A DNA stretch of 40,209 bases from sequence record OZ035809.1. One strand, 5' to 3'. The notes under the pieces were generated by a model. The model was not told where the DNA came from, made no database searches, and saw only the letters and a list, made by a program, of their open reading frames with translations. Source of the DNA: Kayfunavirus T147P5. Made by a program: the position numbers and the translations under genes. Positions 1 to 37,482 of this stretch are shown piece after piece; position 1 is the stretch's first letter, and the number at the start of each line of letters is the position of its first letter.

Positions 1-33
1 TACAAAACGATTAAAGGAGGTGGTAAAACATGA
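1..33 (+). CDS. holin (gene 17.5-like) C-terminal fragment; valid only if the window ends are contiguous (wrap-around)
   Basis: Frame 1 is open from nt 1 to TGA at 31-33 (YKTIKGGGKT*), in the same codon phase as the holin ORF that runs off the window at 40209; stop overlaps the gene 18 ATG (ATGA). Lys-rich tail fits a holin C-terminus. Confidence 0.3.
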   Translation, partial: YKTIKGGGKT

Positions 34-293
34 CGCAGATGGACTTAGAGAAGTTCCTCTTAATGCTAGATACTGAACGTGCTCGACTCATGCTGCAAGA
101 CCTGCGGGATGACTCTAAGCGTTCACCTCAGCTTTACAACGCCATTGAGAAGCTACTGGCTCGTCACAACTTCGTGCTAAGCAAGGTGTCTGTTGACGAG
201 AAGACGCTCGCTGATATGGAGGCCCTGAACGCAGAGTACGATAAGGTGCTCTCAGCGACTGAGGATAATGACACCGGGTATGGTGTTCAATAA
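30..293 (+). CDS. terminase small subunit (T7 gp18-like)
   Basis: RBS AAGGAGG at 14-20; 87 aa; shares LxMLDT...RSPQLYNAI.KLL.RH.F with T7 gp18 (recalled); lies just upstream of spanins and terminase large subunit. Confidence 0.85.
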   Translation: MTQMDLEKFLLMLDTERARLMLQDLRDDSKRSPQLYNAIEKLLARHNFVLSKVSVDEKTLADMEALNAEYDKVLSATEDNDTGYGVQ

Positions 294-295
294 GT

Positions 296-341
296 GTTAG
301 ACTCAAGGTCATTACTATATGTAGTGGCCTTTATGGTTAAC
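296..341 (+). promoter_or_regulatory. RNase III-site-like RNA hairpin (analogous position to T7 R18.5)
   Basis: Inner stem AAGGUCA(305-311)/UGGCCUU(325-331) with one G-U pair, outer stem GUUA(296-299)/UAAC(338-341), 13-nt loop; near-identical element at 16436-16481 and 9519-9565. Confidence 0.5.
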
Positions 342-354
342 ACTAGGAGGATAT

Positions 355-759
355 ATGGAAGGACAATATTTAAGCGGTGGTTACTATAAAGTAACTATCA
401 ATGGTAAGGTTCACGGGGTTCATCGGGTTAAATGGGAGATGGCGCATGGGCCAGTTCCGGCTGGCTACGTCATTGACCATATAGACCGGAACACTCTGAA
501 CAATGAGCTATCAAACCTAAGGGCAATACCTAAAGGCGCTAATGGTGCTAATACCTTATCGTCTAGAGAGTTACCAAAAGGAGTCTACTCACGGTTCGCT
601 AAAAGGCTTAACGCTACAGTGTACTATGGAGACATACGCATTGGTGGCATCAAGAGAACCCATGAGCCTACTACCAATCTACAGAAAGTTGAGGACTGGG
701 CTAAAGAGGCCCACGCAAATCTTCTTAAGGAGGTGTATGGTGTGGTTAACGTTTATTAA
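355..759 (+). CDS. HNH homing endonuclease
   Basis: RBS AGGAGG 345-350; 134 aa with HGVHRVKWEMAHGPVPAGYVIDHIDRNTLNNELSNLR (classic HNH motif); inserted between terminase small subunit and spanin, overlapping the spanin start. Confidence 0.8.
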   Translation: MEGQYLSGGYYKVTINGKVHGVHRVKWEMAHGPVPAGYVIDHIDRNTLNNELSNLRAIPKGANGANTLSSRELPKGVYSRFAKRLNATVYYGDIRIGGIKRTHEPTTNLQKVEDWAKEAHANLLKEVYGVVNVY

Positions 760-1177
760 GAGAGTGGTCCCTTGGCTAGTGGCAGGACTCCTGTTCGCCT
801 CTGGTTACTGGGTAGCTGACAATAAGTGGGAGGCTAAAGTAAATGAAGAATACATCACGAAACTTGAGGCACGAGAGAGTCAACGAACTGCTATCCAAGC
901 ACGAGTCGATGAAGTCTCAGCGGAGTGGCAGGACAAGATGTCCTCGCTGGAAGGCTCTACTGATAGGATTATTAATGACCTTAACCGCGATAACAGGCGG
1001 CTGCTCGTCAAAGTCAAGACCTCAGGTCTCAGCGAGCCAGATTACAGTAGATGCTTCCCTAATGGTCGAGTCGAACTACACCCAGAGACTTCTAAAAGTC
1101 TTATCCGAATAACGCAAGAAGCTGACCTTAAGGAGAAAGCTTTACAGGAAACCATAAGGAGGTTGCGTGGCGAATAA
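737..1177 (+). CDS. i-spanin (Rz-like, T7 gp18.5-like)
   Basis: ATG 737 with RBS AAGGAGG 725-731; N-terminal TM segment ([17 protein letters not shown]); resembles T7 gp18.5; the ORF-track start at 542 is an in-frame upstream extension without RBS. Confidence 0.8.
843..1112 (+). CDS. o-spanin (Rz1-like lipoprotein, T7 gp18.7-like), embedded in +1 frame of i-spanin
   Basis: Signal/lipobox [14 protein letters not shown]; C-terminal VDASLMVE resembles T7 gp18.7 (VDSSLMVE); fully nested within 737-1177 as in T7. Confidence 0.75.
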   Translation: MKNTSRNLRHERVNELLSKHESMKSQRSGRTRCPRWKALLIGLLMTLTAITGGCSSKSRPQVSASQITVDASLMVESNYTQRLLKVLSE

Positions 1178-2936
1178 GAAAACACCTGCTGAAAGACAGG
1201 CAGAAATGACCCAAAGGATGAGGGATGACTTCGTGTTCTTCATATTCGTTCTATGGAAAGCTCTGAGCCTTCCTGTTCCAACACGCTGCCAGATAGATAT
1301 GTGTAAGAAGCTGGCGGCTGGAGATAATCGACGCTTCATCCTTCAAGCATTCCGTGGTATTGGAAAGTCGTTCCTGACCTGTGGTTTCGTGGTCTGGAAG
1401 TTATGGAATAACCCAGACTTGAAGTTCATGATTGTGTCGGCCTCAAAGGAACGAGCCGATGCGAACTCCATCTTCATCAAGCGTATCATCGACCTCATGC
1501 CTCAGCTTCAGGAACTCAAACCTAAACAGGGGCAGCGAGATGCGGTTATCAGCTTCGACGTGGGACCTGCCAAGCCAGACCACTCACCTTCGGTTAAGTC
1601 CGTTGGTATCACTGGTCAGTTGACTGGTAGTCGTGCTGACATCCTGATTGCCGATGACGTTGAGGTTCCGAACAACTCAGCGACTCAGGCTGCACGAGAC
1701 CGTCTATCAGAGCTTGTGAAAGAGTTCGACGCTATCCTGAAGCCGGGAGGTACGATCATCTATCTGGGTACTCCTCAGAACGAGATGACCCTGTACCGTG
1801 AGCTGGAAGGTCGTGGGTACACCACTACTATCTGGCCCGCTCGTTATCCACGCGACAGGAAGGACTGGCAGTCTTACGGCGACCGTCTGGCTCCTATGCT
1901 TCAGGCAGAGCTGGAAGAGGACCCTGAGTCCTTCTACTGGCGTCCGACTGATGAAGTACGCTTCGATGATACGGACCTGAAGGAACGTGAGCTGTCCTAC
2001 GGTAAAGCTGGATTCGCTCTACAGTTCATGCTTAACCCGAACCTGAGTGATGCCGAGAAGTACCCTCTGAAGCTCCGTGACCTTATCGTAGCCGACTTGG
2101 ACCCAGCGTCCAGCCCAATGGTCTACCAATGGTTGCCAAACCCTCAGAACAAGCGTGAGGACGTTCCTAACGTGGGACTCATGGGTGACTCGTACCACAC
2201 GTATCAGACTGTAGGTTCTGCCTTCAGTTCGTACACCCAGAAGATTCTGGTCATAGACCCTAGTGGTCGTGGTAAGGATGAAACTGGCTATGCGGTACTA
2301 TACCAGCTCAACGGCTATATCTTCGCTATGGAAGTTGGCGGTATGCGTGGTGGCTATGAAGACTCTACGCTGGAAGCCTTGGCTAAGATTGGTCGTAAGT
2401 GGAAGGTCAACGAGTACGTCATTGAGGGTAACTTCGGTGATGGTATGTACCTTGAGTTATTCAAGCCTGTAGCTGCCCGTATCCATCCTGCTGCTGTAAC
2501 TGAAGTGAAGAGTAAGGGTCAGAAAGAACTCCGCATCTGTGACGTTCTGGAGCCTATCATGGGGTCTCACCGACTTATCGTTAACGCTGCTGCTATAGTC
2601 CAAGACTACCAGTCTGCCTCTGATAAGGATGGTGTTCGTAACCCTATCTACTCTCTCTTCTACCAGATGACACGTATCTCTCGTGAACGTGGAGCCTTGG
2701 CACACGATGACCGACTTGATGCGCTGGCTATCGGTGTACAGTTCTTCGTTGAGTCTATGGCTAAGGATGCCAACAAAGGCGAACGTGAAGTCACTGAGGA
2801 GTGGCTGGAGGAACAGATGGAGAACCCACGGAAAGGCTTCGAGTCCATCCACACGGAGTTCTGGGACAATGGGGTCCGGGTAACTCACGATACGGACGAC
2901 GAGCTTGGACTAGGGTCCTACGTTACGTTCCACTAG
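1167..2936 (+). CDS. terminase large subunit (T7 gp19-like)
   Basis: 589 aa; long collinear similarity to T7 gp19 ([77 protein letters not shown]). Confidence 0.95.
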
Positions 2937-3030
2937 CTGAATGAATAACTATAGGCGAAAACTGAATTAATACGCGGTTAGTAACCTATAGTTACTACCA
3001 GTCTAACCTACTGTTTTACAAGGAGTTTGG

Positions 3031-3053
3031 ACTTAACTATCACTATAGGGAAG
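3031..3053 (+). promoter_or_regulatory. phage RNAP promoter (phiOR-like)
   Basis: ACTTAACTATCACTATAGGGAAG; matches the 11-copy consensus; +1 G about 3048; between gene 19 and gene 19.5 as in T7. Confidence 0.8.
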
Positions 3054-3232
3054 ACCCCCGGTTACTTATAGTATTACTGTAGTGAATATACATATGCAGA
3101 CTTTATGCAAGACCTTAGGAGGCAGACTCCGAGTTCTTACCTAAGGCTTGCACCGATGGAAGGAGGGTGATATTAATCATAATCCCTCCAATACAGATAG
3201 TAAAGACCATAGATACAGGAGGTATGTAGCAT

Positions 3233-3391
3233 ATGGCAAAGACCAAAGCTGTACTTAAAGCTCTGGCGACCAATCGAGCTACATACAGGTTTCTTGCTGC
3301 TGTTCTACTTGCTGCTGGCGTTACTGCTGGAAGTCAGTGGGTCGGGTGGGTCGAGACTCTCGTATGTTCTCTGGTCTCTCAGTGTAATTAA
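3233..3391 (+). CDS. gp19.5-like small protein
   Basis: Not in ORF track (52 aa); RBS AGGAGG 3216-3221; MAKTKAVLKALATNRATYRFLAAVLLAAG...LVCSLVSQCN resembles T7 gp19.5 (..RVTYRFLVVL...VVCSIL..); same position after gene 19. Confidence 0.6.
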   Translation: MAKTKAVLKALATNRATYRFLAAVLLAAGVTAGSQWVGWVETLVCSLVSQCN

Positions 3392-3460
3392 CGCAATCAT
3401 GGTAACGATTCATGAGCGGAAGACCTAAGGTCAGTACGTGGATAAAGACTCACTCTACTG

Positions 3461-3599
3461 ACCTTAGCTACTGTAGTCAAGGACTTTAGGTAACACCATT
3501 CAGGCTCTCACCTCTGGTCTACCTACTGATTGGTTCACTGGTCGTCATCCGATGGTCTTAGACCTACGGTCCTTGACCTACAGTAGCTGGTTCCTAAGG
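3461..3599. repeat. imperfect inverted repeat (about 24-bp arms, about 85-bp spacer) just left of the presumed terminal repeat
   Basis: Left arm ACCTTAGCTACTGTAGTCAAGGAC (3461-3484) vs right arm GTCCTTGACCTACAGTAGCTGGT (3569-3591), reverse-complementary with one indel and one mismatch. Confidence 0.5.
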
Positions 3600-3637
3600 A
3601 GGGACGATGAGTTTTGGACCAAAAGTTTGAGACCACA

Positions 3638-3826
3638 TCTCACAGTTCAAGAACCTCAAGTCTCCCCATAGGCCATCTTTCAGTCCAGACCAAAGGCCCT
3701 ACCCCAGTCTATCATAAGGTTAGACCGATGGTCAAGACTTCAGGTCAACGATAGGTTGTGGCTATGGCTTAGGGAAGGACGATAGGTAGGGACTATGGGT
3801 CTGTCTTTGAGTCTCTATCTGTATCA
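3638..3826. repeat. probable direct terminal repeat (single collapsed copy) containing the physical genome ends
   Basis: Begins TCTCACAGTTCAAGAACCTCAAGTCTCCCCATAGG, closely resembling the first bases of the T7 genome (recalled); 246 bp downstream of gene 19.5; end near CTATCTGTATCAG is approximate. Confidence 0.45.
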
Positions 3827-3910
3827 GACCATAAGTCACTAACCTACAGTCTCACTAACCTACAGTCTCAACCATAAGACACCAACACCTACAGTCATAG
3901 ACCTACAGTT
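3827..3910. repeat. short direct-repeat array (ACCTACAGT units)
   Basis: ACCTACAGT at 3842, 3858, 3887, 3901 with tandem 16-bp CTCACTAACCTACAGT x2; analogous to the CCTAAAG-type arrays after the T7 terminal repeat. Confidence 0.5.
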
Positions 3911-4020
3911 ACTAGACACAAAGCTATAGACTTAAGGTCTAAGACATGTTAGTCAAAGACTATATCCTCTTACACCATGGGGCCGACGATAGCTTAATCA
4001 ATATTATTTCAAATTACCTA

Positions 4021-5046: not shown

Positions 5047-5550
5047 ATGGAACGTAACGCTAACGCATACTATGAGCTGCTGGCTGCAACCGTTGAGGCA
5101 TTTATCGAGCGTATTCAGTACGACCACCTGACTCAAGATGATGACTACAGCGATGCGCTGCATGAGGTCGTAGACGGTCAGGTTCCACACTATTACCACG
5201 AGATTTTTACGGTGATGGCTGCTGATGGTATAGACCACGAGTTCGAAGACTCTGGGCTGATGCCTGAAACCAAGGACGTAACGCGTATACTACAAGCTCG
5301 CATCTATGAGGCGCTTTATAACGATGTGTCTAATAGCTTGGATGTAGTCTGGTTTGAGGCTGAAGAGGCAGACGAAGAGGATGAATATTGGGTAGTTGAC
5401 GCTAAAACAGGCGCAATAATTGTGCAAGCTGTAGCTCTTGAGGTCGCTACTGCATGTGCCAATGTCAACTATGCAACAGGTCGCCACCTGAAGGTGGAAG
5501 ACATCAATGATAACGTAGTGTTCGACCCTGCGGCTGAGGACTGCGAGTGA
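5047..5550 (+). CDS. ocr: Ocr-like DNA-mimic anti-restriction protein (T7 gp0.3-like) with about 54-aa C-terminal extension
   Basis: [43 protein letters not shown] nearly identical to T7 Ocr core; acidic stretch [10 protein letters not shown]; 167 aa versus 117 aa in T7. Confidence 0.8.
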
Positions 5551-6433: not shown

Positions 6434-6456
6434 ACTTAACTATCACTATAGGACTC
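6434..6456 (+). promoter_or_regulatory. phage RNAP promoter immediately upstream of the RNAP gene
   Basis: ACTTAACTATCACTATAGGACTC; full consensus match; leader 6457-6525 contains direct repeats (AAGTGAAAGAC x2, GACTTTAAGT x2). Confidence 0.75.
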
Positions 6457-6525: not shown

Positions 6526-9207
6526 ATGAGCGTCATCTCTATTGACAAACACGACTTCTCTGATGTGTCGAACGCCATTGAGCCGTTTAACCTGCTGGCT
6601 GACCACTACGGGCAAGACCTTGCAGTCAAACAGCTTCAGCTTGAGCATGAGGCATACACTGAAGGCGAGCGACGTTTCATCAAGAACCTTGAGCGGCAGA
6701 CTGAGCGAGGGGAACTGGCAGACAATCAGGTCGCCAAGCCTTTGATGCAGACTCTGGTTCCTAAGATTGCGCAAGCCGTCAAGGAGTGGCATGAAGGTCC
6801 AGACGGGAAGCTGTCAACCTCTCGTCCGAGCGTAGCGTTCACCATGTTAAGCACTGAAGAGAAGGCCGTCAAGGACCGCTCTCTTCGCATCTCCTGCGAG
6901 TCTGCTGCGGTTATCATACTGAAGGTCATCCTCTCCAAGCTGGTCAAGCCTGAAGGTATACCGATTACACCGATGGCCTCCGCGATAGGTCGCACACTTG
7001 AGGATGAAATCCGATTCGGTCGCATTCGTGACAAGGAGAAGGAGCACTTCAAGAAGGCAATAGCTGATAACCTGAACAAGAGAGCCGGGGCATCATACAA
7101 GAAAGCCTACATGCAAGCGGTCGAGACATCCATGCTGGAGCAAGGCCAACTAGAAGATGCGTGGGGAACTTGGAGTCCGACCGAGGCTGTCCACGTTGGA
7201 ATCAAGATGCTGGAGATTGTCATCCAGTCAACACAACTGGTCGAGCTTAAGCGTTATGGTGCTGGCAATGCAGCGGCTGACGTTGAGATGGTCCACCTGT
7301 CAGACTTCTGGGTCAAGAAGATGGCACAACGCGGCTTCAGCCTTGCGGGCATCGCTCCAGTCTACCAACCTTGCGTAGTTCCACCTAAGCCGTGGACTGG
7401 TGTCGTAGGCGGTGGGTACTGGGCCAAAGGTCGCAGACCATTACCACTGATTCGCTTAGGGTCTAAGTCTGCGGTGGCACGTTACGAAGACGTGTATATG
7501 CCTGAAGTCTATGACGCTGTTAACATCATCCAGAATACACCTTGGAAAGTGAACAAGAAGGTTCTGGACGTGGTGAACATGGTCGAGAAGTTGAACAACA
7601 CGCCTATTGATGACATCCCTCAGATGGAGCCACTGAAGCCTGAAGAATATGCGGGTGAGACTGAAGAGGAACTCAAGGCGTGGAAGAAAGCGGCTGCTGG
7701 TATCTATCGCCGCGAGAAGGCCAGACAGTCACGCAGGTTGTCGCTGAGCTTTATCGTTAACCAAGCGAACAAGTTCTCTCAGTTCAAGGCCATCTGGTTC
7801 CCGTATAACATGGACTGGCGCGGTCGCGTCTACGCTGTGCCGATGTTCAACCCTCAGGGTAACGACATGCAAAAGGGTCTCCTGACTCTGGCAGTCGGTA
7901 AGCCTATTGGTGCTGATGGTTTCAAATGGCTGAAGGTCCACGGTGCAAACTGTGCGGGTGTCGATAAAGTCACCTTCGAGGAGCGCATCAAGTGGGTGGA
8001 AGATAACCACGACAACATCATGGCTACCGCTAAGGCACCGATGGACAGCATTGAGTGGTGGGGTAAGTTAGACTCTCCGTTCTGCTTCCTAGCGTTCTGC
8101 TTCGAGTATGCTGGCGTAATGCACCACGGTTTGTCTTACTCCTGCTCGCTGCCGATAGCTTTCGATGGGTCCTGCTCTGGGATTCAGCACTTCAGCGCGA
8201 TGCTTCGTGATCACATCGGTGGACATGCAGTAAACCTGACGCCTTCCGGTAAGGTCCAAGACATCTACCGCATCGTGTCTGACCGCATTGAGGAGGAGCT
8301 TAAAGTCCTGCTGGTTAATGGCACGGACAACGAGGGGGTCACTAACGAGGATAAGAAAACTGGCGAGATTACCGAACGTATCAAGCTGGGGACACGAGAG
8401 CTGGCCCGCCAGTGGCTGACTTACGGTATGTCACGCAAGGTTACTAAGCGCTCAGTCATGACTCTGGCCTATGGGTCGAAAGAGTACGGCTTTGCAGACC
8501 AAGTTTACGAGGACATCGTGATGCCAGCGATTGACTCAGGGTCTGGCGCTATGTTCACTGAACCAAGCCAAGCGTCTCGCTTCATGGCTAAGATGATTTG
8601 GGAAGCTGTGAGTGTGACCGTAGTTGCTGCAGTTGACGCGATGAAGTGGCTTCAAGGTGCTGCCAAGCTGCTGGCGGCTGAAGTGAAGGACAAGAAGACT
8701 GGAGAAATCCTGAAGCCTTGCCTTCCGGTACACTGGGTCACACCTGATGGGTTCCCGGTCTGGCAGGAATACCGCAAGAAGGATACCACTCGTCTGAACC
8801 TGATGTTCTTAGGGTCATTCAACCTTCAGCCTACCGTCAACAAAGGCACGAAGAAGGAGTTGGATAAGCACAAGCAGGAGTCAGGAATTAGCCCGAACTT
8901 CGTCCACTCACAAGATGGTAGCCATCTCCGCAAGACTGTAGTCCACACTCACCGCAAGTATGGCGTGATGTCATTCGCAGTGATTCACGATAGCTTCGGG
9001 ACCATCCCGGCTGACGCTGAGTATCTGTTCCGGGGTGTCCGTGAGACGATGGTCGAGACCTACCGCGACAACGATGTGCTGCTTGACTTCTACGAGCAGT
9101 TTGAATACCAACTTCATGAGAGCCAGCGCGACAAGTTGCCTGAGCTTCCGAAGAAAGGTAAACTGAATATTGAGGACATTCTATCTTCAGACTTTGCATT
9201 CGCTTAA
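6526..9207 (+). CDS. DNA-directed RNA polymerase, single-subunit (T7 gp1-like)
   Basis: 893 aa; collinear with T7 RNAP (DFSD...PFN.LADHYG, FQPCVVPPKPWTG, WFPYNMDWRGRVYAV, FCFLAFCFEYAG, HDSFGT, C-terminal FAFA). Confidence 0.97.
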   Translation: MSVISIDKHDFSDVSNAIEPFNLLADHYGQDLAVKQLQLEHEAYTEGERRFIKNLERQTERGELADNQVAKPLMQTLVPKIAQAVKEWHEGPDGKLSTSRPSVAFTMLSTEEKAVKDRSLRISCESAAVIILKVILSKLVKPEGIPITPMASAIGRTLEDEIRFGRIRDKEKEHFKKAIADNLNKRAGASYKKAYMQAVETSMLEQGQLEDAWGTWSPTEAVHVGIKMLEIVIQSTQLVELKRYGAGNAAADVEMVHLSDFWVKKMAQRGFSLAGIAPVYQPCVVPPKPWTGVVGGGYWAKGRRPLPLIRLGSKSAVARYEDVYMPEVYDAVNIIQNTPWKVNKKVLDVVNMVEKLNNTPIDDIPQMEPLKPEEYAGETEEELKAWKKAAAGIYRREKARQSRRLSLSFIVNQANKFSQFKAIWFPYNMDWRGRVYAVPMFNPQGNDMQKGLLTLAVGKPIGADGFKWLKVHGANCAGVDKVTFEERIKWVEDNHDNIMATAKAPMDSIEWWGKLDSPFCFLAFCFEYAGVMHHGLSYSCSLPIAFDGSCSGIQHFSAMLRDHIGGHAVNLTPSGKVQDIYRIVSDRIEEELKVLLVNGTDNEGVTNEDKKTGEITERIKLGTRELARQWLTYGMSRKVTKRSVMTLAYGSKEYGFADQVYEDIVMPAIDSGSGAMFTEPSQASRFMAKMIWEAVSVTVVAAVDAMKWLQGAAKLLAAEVKDKKTGEILKPCLPVHWVTPDGFPVWQEYRKKDTTRLNLMFLGSFNLQPTVNKGTKKELDKHKQESGISPNFVHSQDGSHLRKTVVHTHRKYGVMSFAVIHDSFGTIPADAEYLFRGVRETMVETYRDNDVLLDFYEQFEYQLHESQRDKLPELPKKGKLNIEDILSSDFAFA

Positions 9208-9424: not shown

Positions 9425-9500
9425 CAGACCTACAGTTACTGGCCATGTGGCTGGGAGCACTAGCAGTATTCACTTTAATCCAACGCAGAAGAGGTTAACC

Positions 9501-9523
9501 CTAAACTATCACTATAGGATTAG
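9501..9523 (+). promoter_or_regulatory. phage RNAP promoter (phi1.1-like)
   Basis: CTAAACTATCACTATAGGATTAG; +1 about 9518. Confidence 0.8.
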
Positions 9524-9779: not shown

Positions 9780-10043
9780 ATGGGCCGACTTTATAGTGGC
9801 AACCTCAACGCTTTCAGAGCAGCGTGTAACAGGCTTTATCAGTTAGACTTCGCTGTTATATCTCAGGAGTTTCAAGACCATACGTCACGCCAAGAGTGCA
9901 TGAAACTCAGGGTGGAGGACCGAGCTGGTAACATCTTCGCGCTTGAGACCTTCGCACACTACGATGAAGACGTGCTGTATAATACTGCAACAGACTACCT
10001 CAACGGTCTCGCTGACCAACTCGACACATGGAGCAAAGCATAA
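9780..10043 (+). CDS. gp1.2-like protein (dGTPase inhibitor family)
   Basis: 87 aa; MGRLYSGNLNAF.AA.N.L.QLD.AVI...RL.EDR.GN...T.HDEDVL.N..TD.LN closely resembles T7 gp1.2. Confidence 0.8.
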   Translation: MGRLYSGNLNAFRAACNRLYQLDFAVISQEFQDHTSRQECMKLRVEDRAGNIFALETFAHYDEDVLYNTATDYLNGLADQLDTWSKA

Positions 10044-11125
10044 TGACAACTATCAAAACTAACCCGCACCGCGCTGTAGATTACTCTGAGTCTGGCATTA
10101 AAAAGGCACTGGAAGCAGCCGGGTCTCTGGAAGCTGAAGTGAAGTACGATGGTGTCCGGTTGAACCTTCCGGTGCTGCGAGAAGGTGAGACATACTGGTT
10201 AAGCCGTGAGTCTAAACCGCTGCCAGCACTGGAGTGGATGAACTCTGAGTTAGGGAATGCGTGGACTCAAGCTGACTGGCGATGGTTCCTGCGTCAAGCT
10301 GGATACGAAGGCGTAGGCCTGATGATTGACGGAGAGGTAATGGTCAAAGGTGTTGACTTCAACACATCATCGGGTCTCATCCGAACGAAGTGGCTGAAGC
10401 CTAGCAACGAGGAGTTCGCTGAATGCTATCCGGGACGTGGCAAGAAGGTCCCGTTCTGGGTAGCCAGGTCACGACTCAAGGTTGTGGTCTACGGCGTCGT
10501 AGATATGACAACCATTGCTGACCCGAAAGCCGAAGGTCCTATCCATAGCGTCACACGCCTGAAGGCCGAAGCTATCGTCCCTCTCCTCCAGAAATACTTC
10601 CCGGAAATCTACTGGGTTCTGTCTGAGTCACACACGGTCTATGACCTTGAGTCGCTCAACTCCCTGTACGAACAGAAGCGTCTGGAAGGACATGAGGGTC
10701 TGGTAGTCAAGGACCCACTAGGTAAGTACAAGCGTGGCAAGAAGTCTGGCATGTGGAAAATGAAGCCTGAGGAGACCATCGACGGGACCGTGTGTGGCCT
10801 CGTGTGGGGGACTCCTGGTAAGGCTAACGAAGGTAAGGTCATCGGCTTTGAGGTTCTACTGGAGGATGGCATGGTGGTCAACGCCTGTGGTCTGACTGAA
10901 GAACAGAAGGACGAGTTTACGGCTAAGGTCAAGGAGGACACGCTTGCTGCGGTTGGCATCTTTGAGCCGTACGGCATTGGTGGTAACGAACCTTGCTTCA
11001 ATAACCCATACGAAGGCTGGCAGTGTGAAGTCCTCTTCATGGAGAGGTTCCCTGATGGCTCCCTTCGTCACCCCAGCTTCAAGTGCTGGCGTGGAACCGA
11101 AGACAACCCAACGGTGAAGTCATGA
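10043..11125 (+). CDS. ATP-dependent DNA ligase (T7 gp1.3-like)
   Basis: Start chosen at ATG 10043 (TAATG overlap with gp1.2) to match T7 N-terminus (MTTIKTNP..); adenylation motif EVKYDGVR; EGHEGLVVKDP; KSGMWKMKPE; SLRHPSF. Confidence 0.9.
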   Translation: MTTIKTNPHRAVDYSESGIKKALEAAGSLEAEVKYDGVRLNLPVLREGETYWLSRESKPLPALEWMNSELGNAWTQADWRWFLRQAGYEGVGLMIDGEVMVKGVDFNTSSGLIRTKWLKPSNEEFAECYPGRGKKVPFWVARSRLKVVVYGVVDMTTIADPKAEGPIHSVTRLKAEAIVPLLQKYFPEIYWVLSESHTVYDLESLNSLYEQKRLEGHEGLVVKDPLGKYKRGKKSGMWKMKPEETIDGTVCGLVWGTPGKANEGKVIGFEVLLEDGMVVNACGLTEEQKDEFTAKVKEDTLAAVGIFEPYGIGGNEPCFNNPYEGWQCEVLFMERFPDGSLRHPSFKCWRGTEDNPTVKS

Positions 11126-11301
11126 GTACACAACTTTATATCAACATAGCAAGTGGTCAACTCTACGCTGTGGTAAATGGCGAGCTGTGGTATCGTAAAC
11201 TCAAGAAGTGGGCCAAGTCCTACTACGATGAAGAGACAATATCAACCATGAGTCATCGCTACCGTAAGGCTGCTAAGGTGAACAACTTTAAGATGCGTTA
11301 A
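11122..11301 (+). CDS. hypothetical small protein (gene 1.4/1.5 position)
   Basis: ATG 11122 overlaps ligase stop (ATGA); 59 aa. Confidence 0.5.
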   Translation: MSTQLYINIASGQLYAVVNGELWYRKLKKWAKSYYDEETISTMSHRYRKAAKVNNFKMR

Positions 11302-11307
11302 CGTCAA

Positions 11308-11339
11308 CCCAGTGGTCTTAGGACTGCTGGGTTTCTTTG
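11308..11339 (+). terminator. intrinsic terminator candidate (analogous to T7 early terminator TE after gene 1.3)
   Basis: Stem CCCAGUGGUC (11308-11317)/GACUGCUGGG (11322-11331) with two G-U pairs, loop UUAG, followed by UUUCUUUG. Confidence 0.6.
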
Positions 11340-11360
11340 CGTCTGGGCCACCAGCTAGAC

Positions 11361-11383
11361 CCTAAGCTATCACTATAGGACAA
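11361..11383 (+). promoter_or_regulatory. phage RNAP promoter
   Basis: CCTAAGCTATCACTATAGGACAA; +1 about 11378. Confidence 0.75.
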
Positions 11384-11409
11384 CCCTAACCGACCAAAGG
11401 AGAAACCTT

Positions 11410-11664
11410 ATGTCTAAAAACTTAATGTTCAACCGATTTACTCGAAGCTTCCACCTGTCGCATAGCCCATTCAGCTTCCATAAAGCTAATCAACCATTAC
11501 CCCGCTTTGGTAAGACAGTGGCTCTGTCTCCTACAGTTCATGCGCTAGTCACCCGCAAGTCTATGCTGAATGCTATGGATAAAGAACAAGTTGATGTGCC
11601 TGTGGTCATTACAAAATGGCCTCGCATTAAGCTGGCACTTCTGGTAATTAAGGAGGCGCTCTGA
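11410..11664 (+). CDS. hypothetical protein (gene 1.6 position)
   Basis: 84-aa ORF downstream of promoter; RBS AAGGAG 11397-11402. Confidence 0.55.
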   Translation: MSKNLMFNRFTRSFHLSHSPFSFHKANQPLPRFGKTVALSPTVHALVTRKSMLNAMDKEQVDVPVVITKWPRIKLALLVIKEAL

Positions 11665-11996
11665 TGACATACTGTGATAGCACCACATACTGTGAAGCAT
11701 GTAATGGTGACGACCGCTTCCCGCACGTTGGTAAACTTGTAGGTAACAAACTACAAGAAATTGATGACGTCCGCAAGCCGTCCCACTATCAGGTCTTTGA
11801 TAGCGTGGAATCCATTGAGATTATCGCACGGTCAATGACTGTGAGTGAGTTCCGTGGGTTCTGCATGGGTAACGTCCTGAAGTATCGACTCCGGGCTGGT
11901 AAGAAGTCCGAACTGGCTACTATGGAGAAGGACCTGAACAAAGCATCCTTCTATCAGAAGCTGTTCGACTTGCATAAAGGTAAGTGCTATGCTTAA
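11664..11996 (+). CDS. gp1.7-like protein (short form)
   Basis: 110 aa; KPSHYQVFDSVE...GFCMGNVLKYRLRAG resembles a conserved block of T7 gp1.7 as recalled; shorter than T7 gp1.7. Confidence 0.45.
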   Translation: MTYCDSTTYCEACNGDDRFPHVGKLVGNKLQEIDDVRKPSHYQVFDSVESIEIIARSMTVSEFRGFCMGNVLKYRLRAGKKSELATMEKDLNKASFYQKLFDLHKGKCYA

Positions 11997-12075
11997 TGAT
12001 ATTGTGTATTACTGTGTAGTATGCGCCGGAGTTGGAGCACTAATCATTTTAATATATTGGGCCATAGAGGTGTAA
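11989..12075 (+). CDS. small hydrophobic peptide (28 aa)
   Basis: ATG 11989 overlaps preceding stop (ATGCTTAA); MLNDIVYYCVVCAGVGALIILIYWAIEV; stop TAA 12073-12075 directly before next ATG. Confidence 0.25.
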   Translation: MLNDIVYYCVVCAGVGALIILIYWAIEV

Positions 12076-12076
12076 T

Positions 12077-12175
12077 ATGGAAAAGCCGAGTGAGTGGTGC
12101 GAGCATAAATTTGAGGAGACAGGTAACGTCGATTACCTTCAGCTCTACAACTTATGGAAGGAGCGTGGTCTATGA
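12077..12175 (+). CDS. small protein (32 aa)
   Basis: [32 protein letters not shown]; stop overlaps gp2 ATG (ATGA). Confidence 0.3.
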
Positions 12176-12330
12176 CTGACGTAGAGAAGAAATACATCGT
12201 GGAGCTTGAGGGTCGCGTTCAGTCCTTCGAGGTTCCGATGTATGCAAGGTCTCTTGAAGAGGCTACCCTGAAGTCCCAAGAGTATGAGGACGCTGGGTTT
12301 GTGGTCGGACGGATTCGTCCTGAGCCCTAA
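12172..12330 (+). CDS. gp2-like inhibitor of host RNA polymerase
   Basis: Not in ORF track (52 aa); [14 protein letters not shown]......[10 protein letters not shown] matches T7 gp2 core (SFEVPIYAETLDEA...AGFEVTRVRP). Confidence 0.7.
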
Positions 12331-12348
12331 ACTATCACTGTAGGACAG
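12326..12348 (+). promoter_or_regulatory. phage RNAP promoter (variant, phi2.5-like)
   Basis: CCTAAACTATCACTGTAGGACAG; one substitution at -3; overlaps gp2 stop. Confidence 0.6.
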
Positions 12349-12387
12349 ACGTCCAGTTCGTAACTTTAAATTAGGAGATTTACACCA

Positions 12388-13086
12388 ATGGCTAAAGAGC
12401 AACTGAAGACTTTCACCACTCCGGTAGCTGGTATCGTTGAGCCTTACGCATGGCTGAACAAAGCAGACACCAAGTTTAATGAACGTGGTGAGCATAAGGT
12501 TAACCTGACATTCGACCTGAGCAACCCGAAGGTCCGTAAGATGATTGATGTCTTACAGAAGATTCACGACGATGCGTATGCGAAAGCACTCGCAGACCAC
12601 GAGAAGAACCCACCTCAGGTTCAGCGTGGCAAGAAGCCTATTGAACCACGAGAGGGCGACATGCCGTGGATTGAGAATGGTGACGGTACTGTTACCATGA
12701 AGTTTAAATGCTTCGCGTCTTACCTGAAGGATGGTAAGTCAGAGCCTATCGTATTACGGTTCTACGACACCGATGCTAAGTTAATCCGTGACGTCCCGAA
12801 TATTGGCGCTGGCTCAAAACTGAAGGTCAAGTTTAAAGTCCTGCCGTTCAAGTGGAACGCTGCGACTGGTGCAAGCGTTAAGCTACAGCTTGAGTCCTGC
12901 CTTCTGGTAGAACTGAAGGAGTGGAAAGGTGATGGTACTGGTGGCGATGGCGGCTGGGGTGATGATGAAGACCTCGGTACTGGCTACAAAGCATCAACCG
13001 ATGGTGACTTCGGGTCTGATGACTTCGGTGACGATGGTTACGAAGGTGGTGACGACTCCAACTCTGGTGGCGATTACGACTTCTAA
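12388..13086 (+). CDS. single-stranded DNA-binding protein (T7 gp2.5-like)
   Basis: 232 aa; Gly/Asp-rich acidic C-terminus ending GGDYDF as in gp2.5; RBS TTAGGAG. Confidence 0.9.
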   Translation: MAKEQLKTFTTPVAGIVEPYAWLNKADTKFNERGEHKVNLTFDLSNPKVRKMIDVLQKIHDDAYAKALADHEKNPPQVQRGKKPIEPREGDMPWIENGDGTVTMKFKCFASYLKDGKSEPIVLRFYDTDAKLIRDVPNIGAGSKLKVKFKVLPFKWNAATGASVKLQLESCLLVELKEWKGDGTGGDGGWGDDEDLGTGYKASTDGDFGSDDFGDDGYEGGDDSNSGGDYDF

Positions 13087-14234: not shown

Positions 14235-14450
14235 ATGATTAAACTTATCGAATTTCTTGGTCGTCTGGTGGTGCGTGGCTATCGTCGTGCTGCGGTACTG
14301 GAACGAAAGGTAGAAAAGAAGACTGCCGATGGTGCGGCTGATGCTGCTGCTATGGCTGACAAGCTGACCATCGCGTCACTGGAAGCTGGCATGAAGGCAC
14401 GTCAAGCTGACACCAAAGCTAACCAGTTGGCTAAGTTCTTCAAAGCCTAA
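14235..14450 (+). CDS. hypothetical protein
   Basis: 71-aa ORF with RBS AAGGAG; Ala/Lys-rich. Confidence 0.55.
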   Translation: MIKLIEFLGRLVVRGYRRAAVLERKVEKKTADGAADAAAMADKLTIASLEAGMKARQADTKANQLAKFFKA

Positions 14451-14468
14451 ACTATCACCTTAGGGATG
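14446..14468 (+). promoter_or_regulatory. phage RNAP promoter (degenerate variant)
   Basis: CCTAAACTATCACCTTAGGGATG; two substitutions in the -4 to -2 region; upstream of primase-helicase. Confidence 0.5.
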
Positions 14469-14515: not shown

Positions 14516-16219
<1,704 letters not shown>

Positions 16220-20851: not shown

Positions 20852-20874
20852 ACTAAACTATCACTATAGGGACT
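20852..20874 (+). promoter_or_regulatory. phage RNAP promoter (phi6.5-like)
   Basis: CTAAACTATCACTATAGGGACTT; +1 about 20869. Confidence 0.8.
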
Positions 20875-20935: not shown

Positions 20936-21208
20936 ATGGCGATTAATGCTATTGAAAACGTTGTTAAGCAGTTACAGGAAGAAAGACTCGATGTCCCGAA
21001 CATCTCCCAGTCTGCCATCCAGTTCATGCACGTATTGTTTAACGCAAGCTACGCTGAGAAGATGGGAGCTATCAGTCTCCTCAAGCAGCAAGGCTACAGC
21101 GATGCGTTCATTGCCGGATTCATCAAGGGTCTCCAGTATTGTTCTGACACTCTCGACTCTGCGATTGCTATGCGTCGTGAGCTGAAAGATACCGTTCAGT
21201 TCGATTAA
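20936..21208 (+). CDS. gp6.5-like protein
   Basis: 90-aa ORF with RBS AGAGGAG; assigned by position. Confidence 0.6.
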   Translation: MAINAIENVVKQLQEERLDVPNISQSAIQFMHVLFNASYAEKMGAISLLKQQGYSDAFIAGFIKGLQYCSDTLDSAIAMRRELKDTVQFD

Positions 21209-22487: not shown

Positions 22488-24056
22488 ATGGCAGAACGTG
22501 AAGGATTTGCCGCTGAAGGCGCGAAGTCAGTTTATGATAGATTGAAGAACGGACGACAGCCTTACGAGACCCGCGCACAGAACTGCGCTGCCGTGACCAT
22601 CCCCTCGCTATTTCCCAAGGAGTCCGACAACTCCTCTACGGAATACGTGACGCCGTGGCAAGCTGTAGGTGCTCGCTGCTTGAACAACTTGGCTGCAAAG
22701 CTGATGTTGGCGTTATTCCCTCAGTCACCGTGGATGCGACTGACAGTCTCCGAATATGAGGCAAAGACCTTGAGTCAGGACTCAGAGGCGGCTGCGCGTG
22801 TTGACGAAGGGCTGGCTATGGTAGAGCGTGTGTTGATGGCCTACATGGAGACTAACAGTTTCCGTGTCCCATTGTTCGAGGCTCTGAAGCAGCTTATCGT
22901 CTCCGGTAACTGTCTGCTCTACATTCCAGAGCCTGAACAGGGAACCTACAGTCCCATGCGAATGTACCGCTTAGTGTCCTACGTTGTTCAACGTGATGCG
23001 TTCGGTAACATCTTGCAGATTGTGACTCTCGACAAGGTAGCGTTTAGTGCTCTACCGGAAGACGTGAAGTCTCAACTCAACGCAGACGACTATGAGCCTG
23101 ACACCGAGCTGGAAGTGTATACGCACATCTACCGTCAGGACGACGAGTATCTGCGCTACGAGGAAGTGGAAGGCATTGAGGTAACAGGGACCGATGGTTC
23201 ATATCCTCTGACTGCCTGTCCGTACATCCCTGTACGAATGGTTCGACTGGATGGTGAAGACTATGGTCGTTCTTACTGCGAGGAGTATCTTGGAGACCTG
23301 AACTCGCTGGAGACGATTACAGAAGCTATTACCAAAATGGCTAAGGTAGCCTCCAAGGTGGTGGGCCTCGTTAACCCGAACGGTATCACGCAACCTCGTC
23401 GTCTGAACAAGGCGGCTACAGGTGAGTTCGTGGCTGGTCGCGTTGAGGACATCAACTTCCTGCAACTGACGAAGGGTCAGGACTTTACGATTGCCAAGTC
23501 GGTGGCTGACGCTATCGAGCAACGTTTAGGATGGGCCTTCCTTCTTAATAGTGCTGTTCAGCGTAATGCCGAGCGAGTCACTGCTGAAGAGATTCGTTAT
23601 GTTGCTGGCGAACTGGAGGCGACCTTAGGTGGCGTGTACTCAGTACAGTCACAAGAGCTTCAGTTACCTATCGTCCGTGTGCTGATGAACCAGCTTCAGT
23701 CTGCTGGAATGATTCCTGACCTTCCGAAAGAAGCGGTAGAGCCTACTGTCTCCACTGGTCTGGAAGCGTTAGGTCGTGGTCAGGACTTAGAGAAGCTGAC
23801 TCAGGCAGTCAACATGATGACCGGGCTACAGCCTCTACAACAGGACCCAGACATTAACTTGCCTACACTGAAGCTGCGACTGCTGAATGCCTTAGGCATT
23901 GACACCGCTGGTCTGCTACTGACTCAGGACGAGAAGTTGCAACGCATGGCTGAACAATCCGCTCAAGGAGCTGTGGTCAACGGTGCGTCTGCTGCTGGTG
24001 CTAACATGGGTGCTGCTGTAGGTCAGGGAGCTGGTGAGGACATGGCTCAAGCCTAA
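22488..24056 (+). CDS. portal (head-tail connector) protein (T7 gp8-like)
   Basis: 522-aa ORF directly upstream of scaffold and capsid genes; size and position as T7 gp8. Confidence 0.9.
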   Translation: MAEREGFAAEGAKSVYDRLKNGRQPYETRAQNCAAVTIPSLFPKESDNSSTEYVTPWQAVGARCLNNLAAKLMLALFPQSPWMRLTVSEYEAKTLSQDSEAAARVDEGLAMVERVLMAYMETNSFRVPLFEALKQLIVSGNCLLYIPEPEQGTYSPMRMYRLVSYVVQRDAFGNILQIVTLDKVAFSALPEDVKSQLNADDYEPDTELEVYTHIYRQDDEYLRYEEVEGIEVTGTDGSYPLTACPYIPVRMVRLDGEDYGRSYCEEYLGDLNSLETITEAITKMAKVASKVVGLVNPNGITQPRRLNKAATGEFVAGRVEDINFLQLTKGQDFTIAKSVADAIEQRLGWAFLLNSAVQRNAERVTAEEIRYVAGELEATLGGVYSVQSQELQLPIVRVLMNQLQSAGMIPDLPKEAVEPTVSTGLEALGRGQDLEKLTQAVNMMTGLQPLQQDPDINLPTLKLRLLNALGIDTAGLLLTQDEKLQRMAEQSAQGAVVNGASAAGANMGAAVGQGAGEDMAQA

Positions 24057-24074
24057 ACTATCACTATAGGAACA
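24052..24074 (+). promoter_or_regulatory. phage RNAP promoter (phi9-like)
   Basis: CCTAAACTATCACTATAGGAACA; overlaps portal stop. Confidence 0.8.
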
Positions 24075-24145
24075 ACGTCTGGTCTACAATTTGTAGGTTT
24101 CTAGTCCAGTTGTTCCTACCATTTCAATCAAAGGAGAATGACTCA

Positions 24146-25070: not shown

Positions 25071-25093
25071 ACTAAACTATCACTATAGGGAGA
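25071..25093 (+). promoter_or_regulatory. phage RNAP promoter (phi10-like, strongest consensus match)
   Basis: TAAACTATCACTATAGGGAGACC with GGGAGA initiating sequence; about 100-nt leader before capsid gene. Confidence 0.85.
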
Positions 25094-29736: not shown

Positions 29737-29786
29737 AAGGGCCTATAGATTTACCTTAACTATCACTATAGGGACTATAGGCCCTT
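29737..29786 (+). promoter_or_regulatory. 12-bp perfect inverted repeat (RNA hairpin, R13-like) enclosing the phi13 promoter
   Basis: AAGGGCCTATAG (29737-29748) and CTATAGGCCCTT (29775-29786) are exact reverse complements; the promoter lies in the loop. Confidence 0.5.
29754..29776 (+). promoter_or_regulatory. phage RNAP promoter (phi13-like)
   Basis: CCTTAACTATCACTATAGGGACT; +1 about 29771. Confidence 0.8.
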
Positions 29787-36500: not shown

Positions 36501-37463
36501 TTAGATGCTGGACGTCAAGGATTCCTGTCTGACATCGTGGAGCATAGCTTGACTGGTAGTAAGCGTAAGTTCGATGACCGCTGGCTGAAGACAGCTGGTA
36601 TCTCAGACGAGCAGTGGAAGGGCATTAAGTCCCTAATCCGTGAGTCAGTGACTCGTGGTCCAGACGGGAAGTACACCATCAAGGATAAGAAGGCGTTCAG
36701 TCAGGACCCAAGGGCTATGGACCTGTGGCGTATGGGTGACACCATCGCTGACGAAACGTTACTCCGTCCTCATAAGCTGTCCAACATGGACGCCAAGGCT
36801 TATGGTCCTATCGCTAAGACTGTCCTTCAGTTTAAGAACTTCGTCATCAAGTCCATCAATGGGCGAACCATGCGTACCTTCTATAACGCCACGAAGAACA
36901 ACCGAGCGATTGACGCTGCACTATCGACCGTGATGTCTATGGGTCTGGCTGGTATCTACTACATGGCTCAGGCGCACATCAAGGCTTATGCTATGCAGGA
37001 TGGTCGAGACCGTGACTACCTTAAGCAAGCTCTGGACCCGACGATGATTGGTTATGCGGCTCTGTCCCGTAGTTCACATCTGGGTGGCCCACTTGGGGTA
37101 GCTAACATTCTAGGAGGCATCGCTGGGTATGAGGACACTAAGATGCTCCGTTCGTCTATCCTACCTCGTTCGCCTACAGAGAAGCCTGAACGTGCCATCA
37201 CGTTTGGTGCAGCTACAAGTGACCCTGTGATGAATGTTGTTGGTAACTTCTTGGAGCAGGTTCCAGCTTTCGGATATGCTGCTAACGTTGGCGTTTCTGC
37301 TTACAACTTGGCTGGCTACCTCAAGGCTGATACTCGTGTCAACGAGCGAGACTACATGACCGGGATGTATAACACCTTCCGTGAACTGGTTCCGAACGAC
37401 CCGATTACTCAGAAGCTGTTGCTTGGAACGTTTGAGGAGCAAGGCATCCACATCAAGGACTAA
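33576..37463 (+). CDS. internal virion protein D (T7 gp16-like ejection protein)
   Basis: 1295-aa ORF; internal blocks FGF..A.EAE..NS.VG.A.RAG, TRWN.H.W..EELD.IRN, ITGGSPQNL..LI.LA.EN, AGVIGAGVDPLTYVP, SVAGGDA match T7 gp16 as recalled; N-terminal 150 aa may differ from T7. Confidence 0.85.
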   Translation: MATRGVRNANPGNIRKSKDQWEGAIGDDGAFVIFDSPESGVRALAKNLQSYGRQGYDSIEKIINRWAPPSENDTQSYIDSVVSATGIPATQSLDLSDPDTLSSLAQAIGFHETGSRYDPEVYKQGVARALNGISPKTPPVSANVFDALTEGLKSKPKVSLGENLPTAAGLNIEGQAPEAPNESFGEMFYKATGETMQEREERSTWFGFGSATEAEVKNSMVGVAIRAGQTEDSLDVIGDVFNPTRWNNHKWSREELDQIRNAGVLPQYYGVITGGSPQNLTELINLALENQKLDQEKAKAGTGAQLTAGVIGAGVDPLTYVPIAGQVGKGGKLVNKMFTVAAQSGALAGVSEMARTSVAGGDAHVAEAILGGALFGGGMTAIADGLGRALGRNTNEFAGPATRLEARETARNVDGQDLSRLPIQEGEHTFSHQGVKFADVPNEPGSVRLEDGSILIGENPLNPKTRQVFDEVIEPERAAAGVNLGGLTEIGLKLLRSENPEIRGVAADLVRSPTGMQSGASGKIGTTASDVFERLRAVDHRFYNDIDDAVTEALKDPYFQTAFWRDSGAFRQDIYQRVSMAIEDGSGNLKAELTPGELKVYDLLKNQFDAKREMMENPAMFGRPDAQSIFPGSRFKGTYVPHVYSNQMKELYIKELGSPEALQEAIKKSWLTSYASRPDVKKRVDEALLEADPTLTPEGLAAAVDKYANDKAYGISHTEQFERSSVMEENINGLVGLENNSFLEARNLFDSDMSIVLPNGQTFSVNNLREWDMDKIVPAYNRRVNGDIAIMAGTGKTTKDMKDLVETMMNKAGDDGKLKGEVSTLRDTLKILTGRARRDGADDAAFATVMRTMTDLSFFTKNAYMGVQNLTEIGGMLARGNVRALLHGVPMFRDLAFRNKKVGASEIKDLHNVIFGKELDDSIRPSKQDVIDRLRSYSDLGRGAATALGTAKYYTGELAVRSPFTKVLNGTTNYLLDAGRQGFLSDIVEHSLTGSKRKFDDRWLKTAGISDEQWKGIKSLIRESVTRGPDGKYTIKDKKAFSQDPRAMDLWRMGDTIADETLLRPHKLSNMDAKAYGPIAKTVLQFKNFVIKSINGRTMRTFYNATKNNRAIDAALSTVMSMGLAGIYYMAQAHIKAYAMQDGRDRDYLKQALDPTMIGYAALSRSSHLGGPLGVANILGGIAGYEDTKMLRSSILPRSPTEKPERAITFGAATSDPVMNVVGNFLEQVPAFGYAANVGVSAYNLAGYLKADTRVNERDYMTGMYNTFRELVPNDPITQKLLLGTFEEQGIHIKD

Positions 37464-37482
37464 ACTATCACTATAGGAAACG
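37460..37482 (+). promoter_or_regulatory. phage RNAP promoter (phi17-like)
   Basis: CTAAACTATCACTATAGGAAACG; overlaps gp16 stop; upstream of tail spike gene. Confidence 0.8.

Follow-up and report, generated by a model that had tools for sequence, protein, structure and literature searches.

A predicted K1F-type RNA polymerase-promoter pair in Kayfunavirus T147P5

In the genome of Kayfunavirus T147P5, the specificity loop of the phage RNA polymerase (RNAP) and a family of repeated promoter-like sequences both depart from their counterparts in T7, which raises the question of whether the two have changed together and, if so, whether the resulting specificity is new. The window analysed here is the whole stretch of 40,209 nucleotides in sequence record OZ035809.1. 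An initial annotation of it had proposed a co-varying polymerase-promoter pair, potentially an orthogonal expression system, and had rested the loop change on a single residue, an Asn at the position of T7 R756. The evidence indicates that T147P5 very probably carries a K1F-type RNAP/promoter pair, with recognition altered from that of T7 by a loop that includes R756N, Q754S, and I761V (T7 numbering).

Gene 1 and its genomic setting

Judged by its nucleotide identity to Kayfunavirus genomes and its collinearity with them, T147P5 is a complete, circularly permuted, K1F-like genome of the genus Kayfunavirus (Studiervirinae). Its first 25 kb show 93-96% identity over 84-94% to Kayfunavirus AN17P1, AN24P4, vB_EcoP_F, and others, and the RNAP gene has a nucleotide identity of 95-98% to many Kayfunavirus records and of 98.4% to AN24P4.

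Gene 1 (6526..9207, + strand) encodes a protein of 893 aa that is assigned to the T7-like single-subunit RNAPs of K1F type from its ORF, its Pfam matches, and its identity to K1F gp1. Both RNA_pol (PF00940, 1.6e-106) and RPOL_N (PF14700, 6.5e-15) pass the curated cut-offs, and the protein matches the T7 RNAP chains in the PDB over its full length (E=0), with 1ARO and 1CEZ as the nearest solved structures. It is 64% identical to T7 RNAP (PDB 1CEZ/1QLN) and shares its fold family and architecture, while the N-terminal domain has insertions of 2 aa and ~11 aa relative to T7. The T7 catalytic and nucleotide-selection residues D537, D812, K631, Y639, and H811 correspond to D547, D822, K641, Y649, and H821 of T147P5, and their five columns are invariant across the six RNAPs aligned with MAFFT (T147P5, T7, T3, K11, SP6, and K1F), for which T7 residue numbering was verified directly on NP_041960. 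On both domain content and catalytic residues, the predicted gene 1 product is a T7-like single-subunit DNA-dependent RNA polymerase.

The closest reference is K1F gp1 (NC_007456), which is 99% identical to the T147P5 RNAP and has the same specificity loop. All eight substitutions between the two proteins (K113R, T201A, D330E, E374A, T501A, G604M, N607H, and I619L) lie outside that loop. Further differences are the circular permutation of the T147P5 assembly relative to the K1F record and the tailspike, which in T147P5 is 824 aa long and matches Tail_spike_N and, weakly and below threshold, a beta-helix, compared with 1064 aa for K1F gp17, described as an endosialidase (PMC4925675). None of these differences has a bearing on promoter specificity.

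The promoter set

The motif CTATCACTATAGG occurs in T147P5 as nine exact copies and two copies with one or two mismatches, all 11 of them on the + strand. Allowing two mismatches, 12 matches are observed against 1.09 expected by chance, a number reached in 0 of 100 shuffles. With a position weight matrix (PWM) derived from the 11 sites, these reach 33-42 bits and the next best site in T147P5 reaches 15.8. The twelfth near-match, CTATGACTGTAGG at 3888-3900 on the minus strand, was considered as a leftward promoter and rejected, as it falls outside the PWM top 20. This near-match is also present in K1F.

All 11 predicted promoters lie in intergenic gaps with a + strand ORF 32-185 nt downstream, and both placement and sequence match the T7-class architecture of ~23 bp from -17 to +6, with G after TATA, on the coding strand. 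The first (3031..3053, -17 to +6 ACTTAACTATCACTATAGGGAAG) follows the terminase gene, at a position like that of phiOR, and has an orthologous K1F site at 38858. Gene 1 is flanked on its 5′ side by a promoter at 75 nt from the RNAP start codon (6434..6456), which is kept in 20 of 20 further Kayfunavirus loci checked, K1F included, and on its 3′ side by another (9500..9522); both were recognized by motif and PWM. The next (11361..11383), after the 365-aa ORF 10028-11125 at the K1F gene 1.3 position (DNA ligase), is the sole site with G at -12. Two sites are variants: that at 12326..12348, 5′ of ORF 12388-13086 (K1F gene 2.5 position), reads CACTGTA with G at -3, as it also does in K1F and GW1, and that at 14446..14468, 5′ of the 566-aa ORF 14519-16219 (K1F gene 4 position), reads CACCTTA, as also found in K1F. 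The remaining promoters precede ORF 20936-21208 (20852..20874; K1F gene 6.5 position), ORF 24110-25069 (24052..24074; K1F gene 9 position, scaffold), ORF 25196-26245 (25071..25093; K1F gene 10 position, major capsid), ORF 29806-30276 (29754..29776; K1F gene 13 position), and the tail-fibre/tailspike gene (37459..37481). The promoter at 25071..25093 has a GGGAGA start like that of T7 class III promoters.

As the initial annotation stated, CTAT occupies -11 to -8 in 11 of 11 sites where T7 has GACT, as T7-type loci do. At -12, T147P5 promoters have A instead of the C of T7, giving ACTAT at -12 to -8 in 10 sites and GCTAT in one. The upstream region differs as well: -17 to -15 diverges overall, and C-16 and T-15 are invariant in T147P5 where T7 has A-16 and A-15. 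The T7 core from -8 to +2 is otherwise identical to that of T147P5, and the -7 to +2 core, CACTATAGG, is common to T147P5, T7, T3, and K11 promoters. The same combination of ACTAT and CACTATAGG is found in K1F, whose promoter set, taken directly from the NC_007456 sequence, agrees with that of T147P5 in all 11 members, in their core, in the two variant sites, and in the promoter 75 nt 5′ of gene 1. Within three mismatches, the T147P5 genome holds no T7-type promoter sequences beyond chance.

The 11 repeated 19-23-mers might instead represent another signal, such as RNase III sites or replication or packaging elements, with the loop change being unrelated drift. This is extremely improbable given the core shared with the T7, T3, and K11 promoters, the uniform + strand, intergenic placement ahead of ORFs, and the positional orthology of the sites to annotated promoters of relatives. 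Moreover, K1F RNAP and polymerases with the K1F loop give expression from PK1F, a promoter of the same sequence class, and in GW1 the motif shifts together with the loop. The predicted 11 middle/late promoters, as well as gene 1, can be annotated with confidence.

The specificity loop and promoter recognition

From approximately T7 residue 700 to the C-terminus, T147P5, K1F, T7, T3, and K11 are mutually gapless in the MAFFT alignment. The specificity loop, a β-hairpin with the sequence YRKKDTTRLNLMFLGSFNLQPTVNKGTKKELD, comprises residues 749-780 (8770..8865, + strand), equivalent to T7 739-770. Within it, the segment RLNLMFLGSFNLQ (residues 756-768; 8791..8829, + strand, in frame with ORF 6526-9207) covers the equivalents of T7 R746 to Q758; the leading T of 'TRLNLMFLGSFNLQ', as the initial annotation gave it, is encoded by codon 8788-8790, just outside this interval. 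Since the alignment of the loop to T7 is gapless, N766 (AAC, 8821..8823, + strand) is the equivalent of T7 R756, so that the proposed Asn assignment holds in the alignment with T7, T3, K11, and SP6. The same gapless alignment bears out the retention of T7 R746, N748, and Q758, which are R756, N758, and Q768 in T147P5. Relative to T7, the loop carries R756N, Q754S, I761V, and Q744T. The second and third of these are S764 (TCA, 8815..8817, + strand) and V771 (GTC, 8836..8838, + strand), matching the 754S and 761V of a published K1F graft (PMC11880802 Table 2), and the loop as a whole has the K1F-type combination N748/S754/N756/Q758/V761.

In T7 RNAP, R756 hydrogen-bonds G(-9) (PMC8874028, PMC5937735), and the literature further describes contacts of Q758 with A-8, of R746 with G-7, and of N748 with -10/-11. 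In the proposed mechanism, the specificity-loop hairpin of the T147P5 polymerase would insert into the promoter major groove at around -12 to -7 with R746, N748, and Q758 retained, while R756, the reader of template-strand G(-9) in T7, would be replaced by Asn along with Q754S and I761V. The promoters would answer with A-C-T-A-T at -12 to -8 in place of the C-G-A-C-T of T7. Because of ACTAT, the C:G pair read by Arg in T7 is absent and -9 is instead A:T. Asn766 may make atomic contacts with this A:T pair and with T:A at -10. Given the exchange of R756 for Asn and the ACTAT promoters, the T147P5 polymerase would thus transcribe only its own middle/late promoters.

A second element may participate further upstream. 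The T7 AT-rich recognition loop (residues 93-101, KAKRGKRPT) reads promoter positions -17 to -13, and its aligned equivalent in T147P5 (6802..6834, + strand) is DGKLSTSRPSV, with a 2-residue insertion. This divergent loop may contribute to the reading of C-16/T-15.

Published K1F specificity and co-variation across lineages

The K1F loop has been grafted into T7 RNAP and, together with an ACTAT promoter, forms an orthogonal pair (Temme 2012, PMC3458549). Engineered T7(K1F) and K1FR polymerase variants are used with PK1F in that study and in a later one (PMC3458549; Segall-Shapiro 2014, PMC4299498), and the substitutions in the graft are 754S, 756N, and 761V with the ACTAT promoter (Zhu 2025, PMC11880802 Table 2). 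The graft gave 17-fold induction and was orthogonal, which shows experimentally that the K1F loop suffices to direct T7 RNAP to an ACTAT promoter; a later rating of the graft set that includes T7(K1F) put its orthogonality at only a modest level, a ratio of 8 (PMC11880802), and a split-polymerase K1F version regained activity only with M750R. Native K1F RNAP and PK1F are also in use as an orthogonal system, both for expression and as a mutator (PMC12218169), and experiments show this pair to be orthogonal to other phage RNAP pairs, with the mutation frequency up 46,470-fold on the cognate promoter versus 6-27-fold on non-cognate promoters.

The engineered T7(K1F) and K1FR polymerases have 754S, 756N, 761V, and ACTAT at -12 to -8 in common with T147P5. 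They differ in having a T7 scaffold and T7 flanks (-17 to -13 TAATA), whereas in T147P5 the AT-rich loop is the native one and the upstream bases are.CTWAA. Selective use of PK1F over T7, T3, and other phage promoters is a literature result for the K1F graft and the native K1F RNAP, and would extend to T147P5 by analogy; the tools already built on PK1F and K1F RNAP should be usable with this phage. The idea of a potential orthogonal expression system is sound in that the K1F pair works as one, but such systems have already been published (PMC3458549, PMC4299498, PMC12218169). As K1F-type specificity, its loop determinants, and its orthogonal use are all known, the T147P5 pair matters little as a discovery.

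Co-variation of the two partners was tabulated for 80 IMG/VR loci and references, with residues 746/748/754/756/758 set against bases -12 to -8. Every locus with RNSNQ has ACTAT (n=20, including K1F), RNQRQ (T7) goes with CGACT, and both RDQRQ (T3) and RDTRQ (GW1-type Kayfunavirus) go with ACCCT. For some T7-like groups with a different start region (e.g., L027 and L029), the single-site rows of this table are noise, and de novo k-mer analysis gives CGACT. KP32-like RNAPs (RKQNF) combine N756 with T-10/A-9, whereas K11-type RNAPs (K748/N756/K758) have C at -9. The latter rule out a code in which N756 invariably goes with A at -9, and the residue-to-base rule is therefore context-dependent. A 2025 covariation study likewise placed K1F in a separate specificity cluster and found 748, 756, and 758 to be dominant in determining specificity, with 756 coupled to -10 and -9.

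The most informative contrast comes from Cronobacter phage GW1 (Kayfunavirus GW1, NC_048161), a member of the same genus with an RNAP that is 88% identical and has the same loop backbone. GW1 carries D748/T754/R756, resembling T3 in these key residues, where T147P5 carries N/S/N, and residues 730-800 of the two RNAPs differ at only five positions (N758D, S764T, N766R, T775G, and K776S). Its promoters are orthologous to those of T147P5, including the one 5′ of gene 1, and all have ACCCT at -12 to -8, two bases (-10 and -9) from ACTAT; orthologous promoters with the same +1 to +8 differ at -16, -10, and -9. The pairing of D748/T754/R756 with ACCCT supports the view that the T147P5 polymerase and promoters are a co-varying pair of a specificity distinct from that of T7.

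How much of this distinction is due to R756N is a separate matter. Asn is real, but it is too narrow a basis for the loop change, as T147P5 departs from T7 at 754, 761, and -12 and in the AT-rich loop with -16/-15 as well, and R756N alone cannot explain the whole CTAT change because N748 is kept although -11/-10 are C,T compared with G,A in T7. A less probable, though by no means negligible, alternative is that the difference from T7 does not lie mainly in R756N and is spread over 748/754/761 and the N-terminal AT-rich loop reading -17 to -13. Consistent with this, the functional graft had three substitutions, 748, 754, and 756 all change together in GW1, N756 occurs with C(-9) in K11-type phages, and both the AT-rich loop, with its insertion, and the invariant C-16/T-15 diverge from T7. 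However, the graft altered only the loop and bases -12 to -7, yet activity and discrimination were seen, so the loop is sufficient for the -12 to -8 part. In addition, the published covariation gives the dominant role to 748/756/758, and among the four base-contacting residues solely 756 differs from T7. The K1F-type reading, in which the loop including R756N, Q754S, and I761V alters recognition, is retained.

That Kayfunavirus holds two mutually distinct polymerase/promoter specificities, a K1F type (N748/S754/N756 with ACTAT) and a GW1 type (D748/T754/R756 with ACCCT), is proposed here only tentatively and is rather doubtful. The two would differ in three loop residues and, at -10/-9, in each of ~8-11 orthologous promoters, including the self-promoter 75 nt 5′ of gene 1, and no intermediates between them occur among 25 Kayfunavirus-like loci. 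If this split is undescribed, it would provide a compact natural case for studying how a polymerase switches in concert with its entire promoter set. In any event, the contrast between the GW1 and K1F types is a neat example from nature of a polymerase and its promoters co-evolving, in keeping with the 748/756/758 covariation rules in the literature.

The specificity loop and its promoters

The RNA polymerase (RNAP) of the window is an 893-aa ORF (6526-9207) with 95-98% nucleotide identity to Kayfunavirus genomes. The initial annotation had placed Asn at the position of T7 R756 in the specificity loop, with the equivalents of T7 R746, N748, and Q758 kept. The interval concerned (8791-8829) is in frame with the RNAP ORF and encodes RLNLMFLGSFNLQ, residues 756-768, in which N766 is specified by AAC (8821-8823). 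In a protein alignment with the K1F, T7, T3, K11, and SP6 RNAPs (sequences from RefSeq records), the window, K1F, T7, T3, and K11 enzymes align without gaps over the entire C-terminal part that begins near T7 residue 700, thus residue correspondence among them is unambiguous. N766 does match T7 R756, and R756, N758, and Q768 match T7 R746, N748, and Q758, as proposed; S764 and V771 stand at T7 Q754 and I761. T7 residue numbers were confirmed directly on the T7 protein. The catalytic residues are also kept. K1F gp1 is 99% identical to the window RNAP, with eight differences that all lie outside the loop, and its entire hairpin, YRKKDTTRLNLMFLGSFNLQPTVNKGTKKELD, is identical. The nearest solved structures are T7 RNAP chains, and no K1F RNAP structure is found among the PDB sequence matches to the window RNAP.

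The promoter sequence CTATCACTATAGG occurs as nine exact copies and two copies with one to two mismatches, always on the + strand. Allowing ≤2 mismatches, 12 matches are found against 1.09 expected, a number reached in 0 of 100 shuffles. A position weight matrix (PWM) built from the 11 sites scores them at 33-42 bits, whereas the next best site in the window scores 15.8. All 11 are located in intergenic gaps, with a + strand ORF 32-185 nt downstream. CTAT at -11 to -8 was correctly described as common to all promoters (11/11), and -12 is A in 10 of them; positions -16, -15, -13, -11 to -5, and -2 to +2 are invariant. The contrast with GACT of T7 also holds, since T7-type loci read CGACT at -12 to -8; T7-type promoters differ further at -12 (C in T7, A in the window) and at -17 to -15, differences that the initial annotation left out. 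All 11 sites recur in K1F, the two weaker variants CACTGTA and CACCTTA among them. The 15.8-bit site, which scores highest below the threshold (20898, + strand), is only 29 nt downstream of the promoter with +1 at 20869 and may be a degenerate duplicate of this neighbor.

Recognition within and probably beyond the loop

In T7, loop residues form the hydrogen bonds R756:G-9, Q758:A-8, and R746:G-7, while N748 contacts -10/-11 (PMC8874028; PMC5937735; PMC11880802). The window RNAP retains the R746 and Q758 equivalents and its promoters retain T-8 and C-7, whereas both the Arg at the 756 equivalent and the C:G pair at -9 are gone. Asn766 would then read A:T at -9 and, with N758, also T:A at -10, consistent with the coupling of position 756 to both bases (PMC11880802).

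The AT-rich recognition loop reads DGKLSTSRPSV in the window (6802-6834, with a two-residue insertion), KAKRGKRPT in T7, and TRGKPQV in GW1, a Cronobacter phage; upstream, the window promoters carry C-16/T-15, those of T7 A-16/A-15, and those of GW1 T-16. Because the two differ in parallel, native specificity probably resides partly outside the specificity loop. The N-terminal domain departs from T7 and T3 both here and at 6856-6888, where an extra segment, EEKAVKDRSLR, lies just past the AT-rich loop equivalent; the K11 insertion at this place is even longer.

Co-variation across loci and within Kayfunavirus

Loops were extracted from 80 RNAP loci from IMG/VR, each with 10-kb flanks, and promoter consensuses were derived per locus both de novo and anchored on the conserved core. 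With residues given at T7 746/748/754/756/758 and bases at -12 to -8, RNSNQ pairs with ACTAT in all loci of the type (20 in the core-anchored run, including K1F), RNQRQ (T7) with CGACT or AGACT, RDQRQ (T3) with ACCCT, RKQNK (K11) with GG(A/G)CA, RKQNF with GGTAG, and RDTRQ (GW1-type Kayfunavirus) with ACCCT. Arg756 is paired with C at -9 (template-strand G) in four different loop backgrounds. Asn756 is paired with T-10/A-9 in two (K1F and RKQNF types) but with C-9 in K11, thus the residue-to-base rule is context-dependent. A divergent relative (IMGVR_UViG_2700988933; RNAP 79% identical) has the loop IKKDTTRIKLMFMGQYR--PTLN, with a two-residue deletion, and putative promoters AAGGAAGGTACACTATAGG. 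An unrelated 10-mer, ACCTACAGTC, is present there in eight copies, all on one strand.

The GW1 type is the most informative of the comparison. Cronobacter phage GW1 (NC_048161; RNAP at 10001-12664) belongs to Kayfunavirus. Its RNAP shares 88% identity with the window enzyme and departs from it at only five positions across residues 730-800 (N758D, S764T, N766R, T775G, and K776S). The eight GW1 promoters identified in this locus read TTAAACCCTCACTATAGG, with T3-like bases at -12 to -8 opposite a D748/T754/R756 loop. Orthologous window and GW1 promoters, marked by identity at +1 to +8 (e.g., GGACTCAA, GGATTAGA, and GGACAACC), differ at -16, -10, and -9. Since the loop and all promoters differ, polymerase and promoters have switched together within one genus. 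This second specificity is also present in another IMG/VR locus (L020), and no intermediates between the K1F and GW1 types were seen among 25 Kayfunavirus-like loci. The proposed co-varying polymerase-promoter pair is therefore supported by GW1 and the cross-locus pairings, although its attribution to a single residue was too narrow.

Published K1F systems, genome layout, and gene 1

The initial annotation also raised a potential orthogonal expression system, which is correct but long realized, as both the K1F graft and native K1F RNAP with its promoter (PK1F) are published. Phage RNAP hairpins were clustered into subfamilies, each with one promoter binding-region consensus, and T7 RNAP with the K1F hairpin was active (17-fold) and orthogonal on a T7 promoter carrying K1F bases at -12 to -7 (Temme 2012; PMC3458549). 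A sigma fragment with the K1F loop (K1FR, carrying M750R) was used subsequently (Segall-Shapiro 2014; PMC4299498). The Temme graft, listed by Zhu (2025; PMC11880802) as 754S, 756N, 761V with cognate ACTAT, exactly matches the residues and bases of the window; orthogonality of the graft set was rated 8, and direct-coupling analysis found that 748/756/758 dominate specificity in a network including the K1F cluster. For broad-host orthogonal expression, native K1F RNAP and PK1F are already an established system, and they now also serve as a targeted mutator, with a 46,470-fold increase on cognate versus 6-27-fold on non-cognate promoters (PMC12218169). K1F-type specificity and its orthogonal use are thus already known.

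The first 25 kb are collinear with and 93-96% identical to Kayfunavirus AN17P1, AN24P4, vB_EcoP_F, and others. Pfam indicates a T7-like layout, with a T7-type large terminase (1167-2936), ocr (5047-5550), the RNAP (6526-9207, + strand), and a T7-tail-N tailspike (37529-40003). Compared with the K1F reference record, the genome is assembled in circularly permuted order: genes of K1F right-end positions (17.5-19) stand first (1-3100), and the phiOR-like promoter at 3048 is the counterpart of K1F site 38858, near the right end of K1F. The terminal repeat and physical ends are expected at roughly 3100-3950. The 824-aa tailspike contains a T7-tail N-terminal domain, Tail_spike_N, and a weak sub-threshold beta-helix match; as it is unlike the 1064-aa K1F gp17, host-capsule specificity is probably not K1.

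A full-consensus cognate promoter (6434-6456, +1 at 6451) lies 75 nt upstream of the RNAP ATG at 6526. It is kept at -75/-81 in the window and in 20 of 20 further Kayfunavirus loci examined; among these, the GW1 type bears the site in an ACCCT version of its own. No such promoter precedes gene 1 in T3, one T7-like locus, and two K11-like loci examined. Any residual novelty would lie in the K1F-type/GW1-type split and in this promoter, whose genus-wide position just upstream of gene 1 suggests that the gene is under positive autoregulation in Kayfunavirus.
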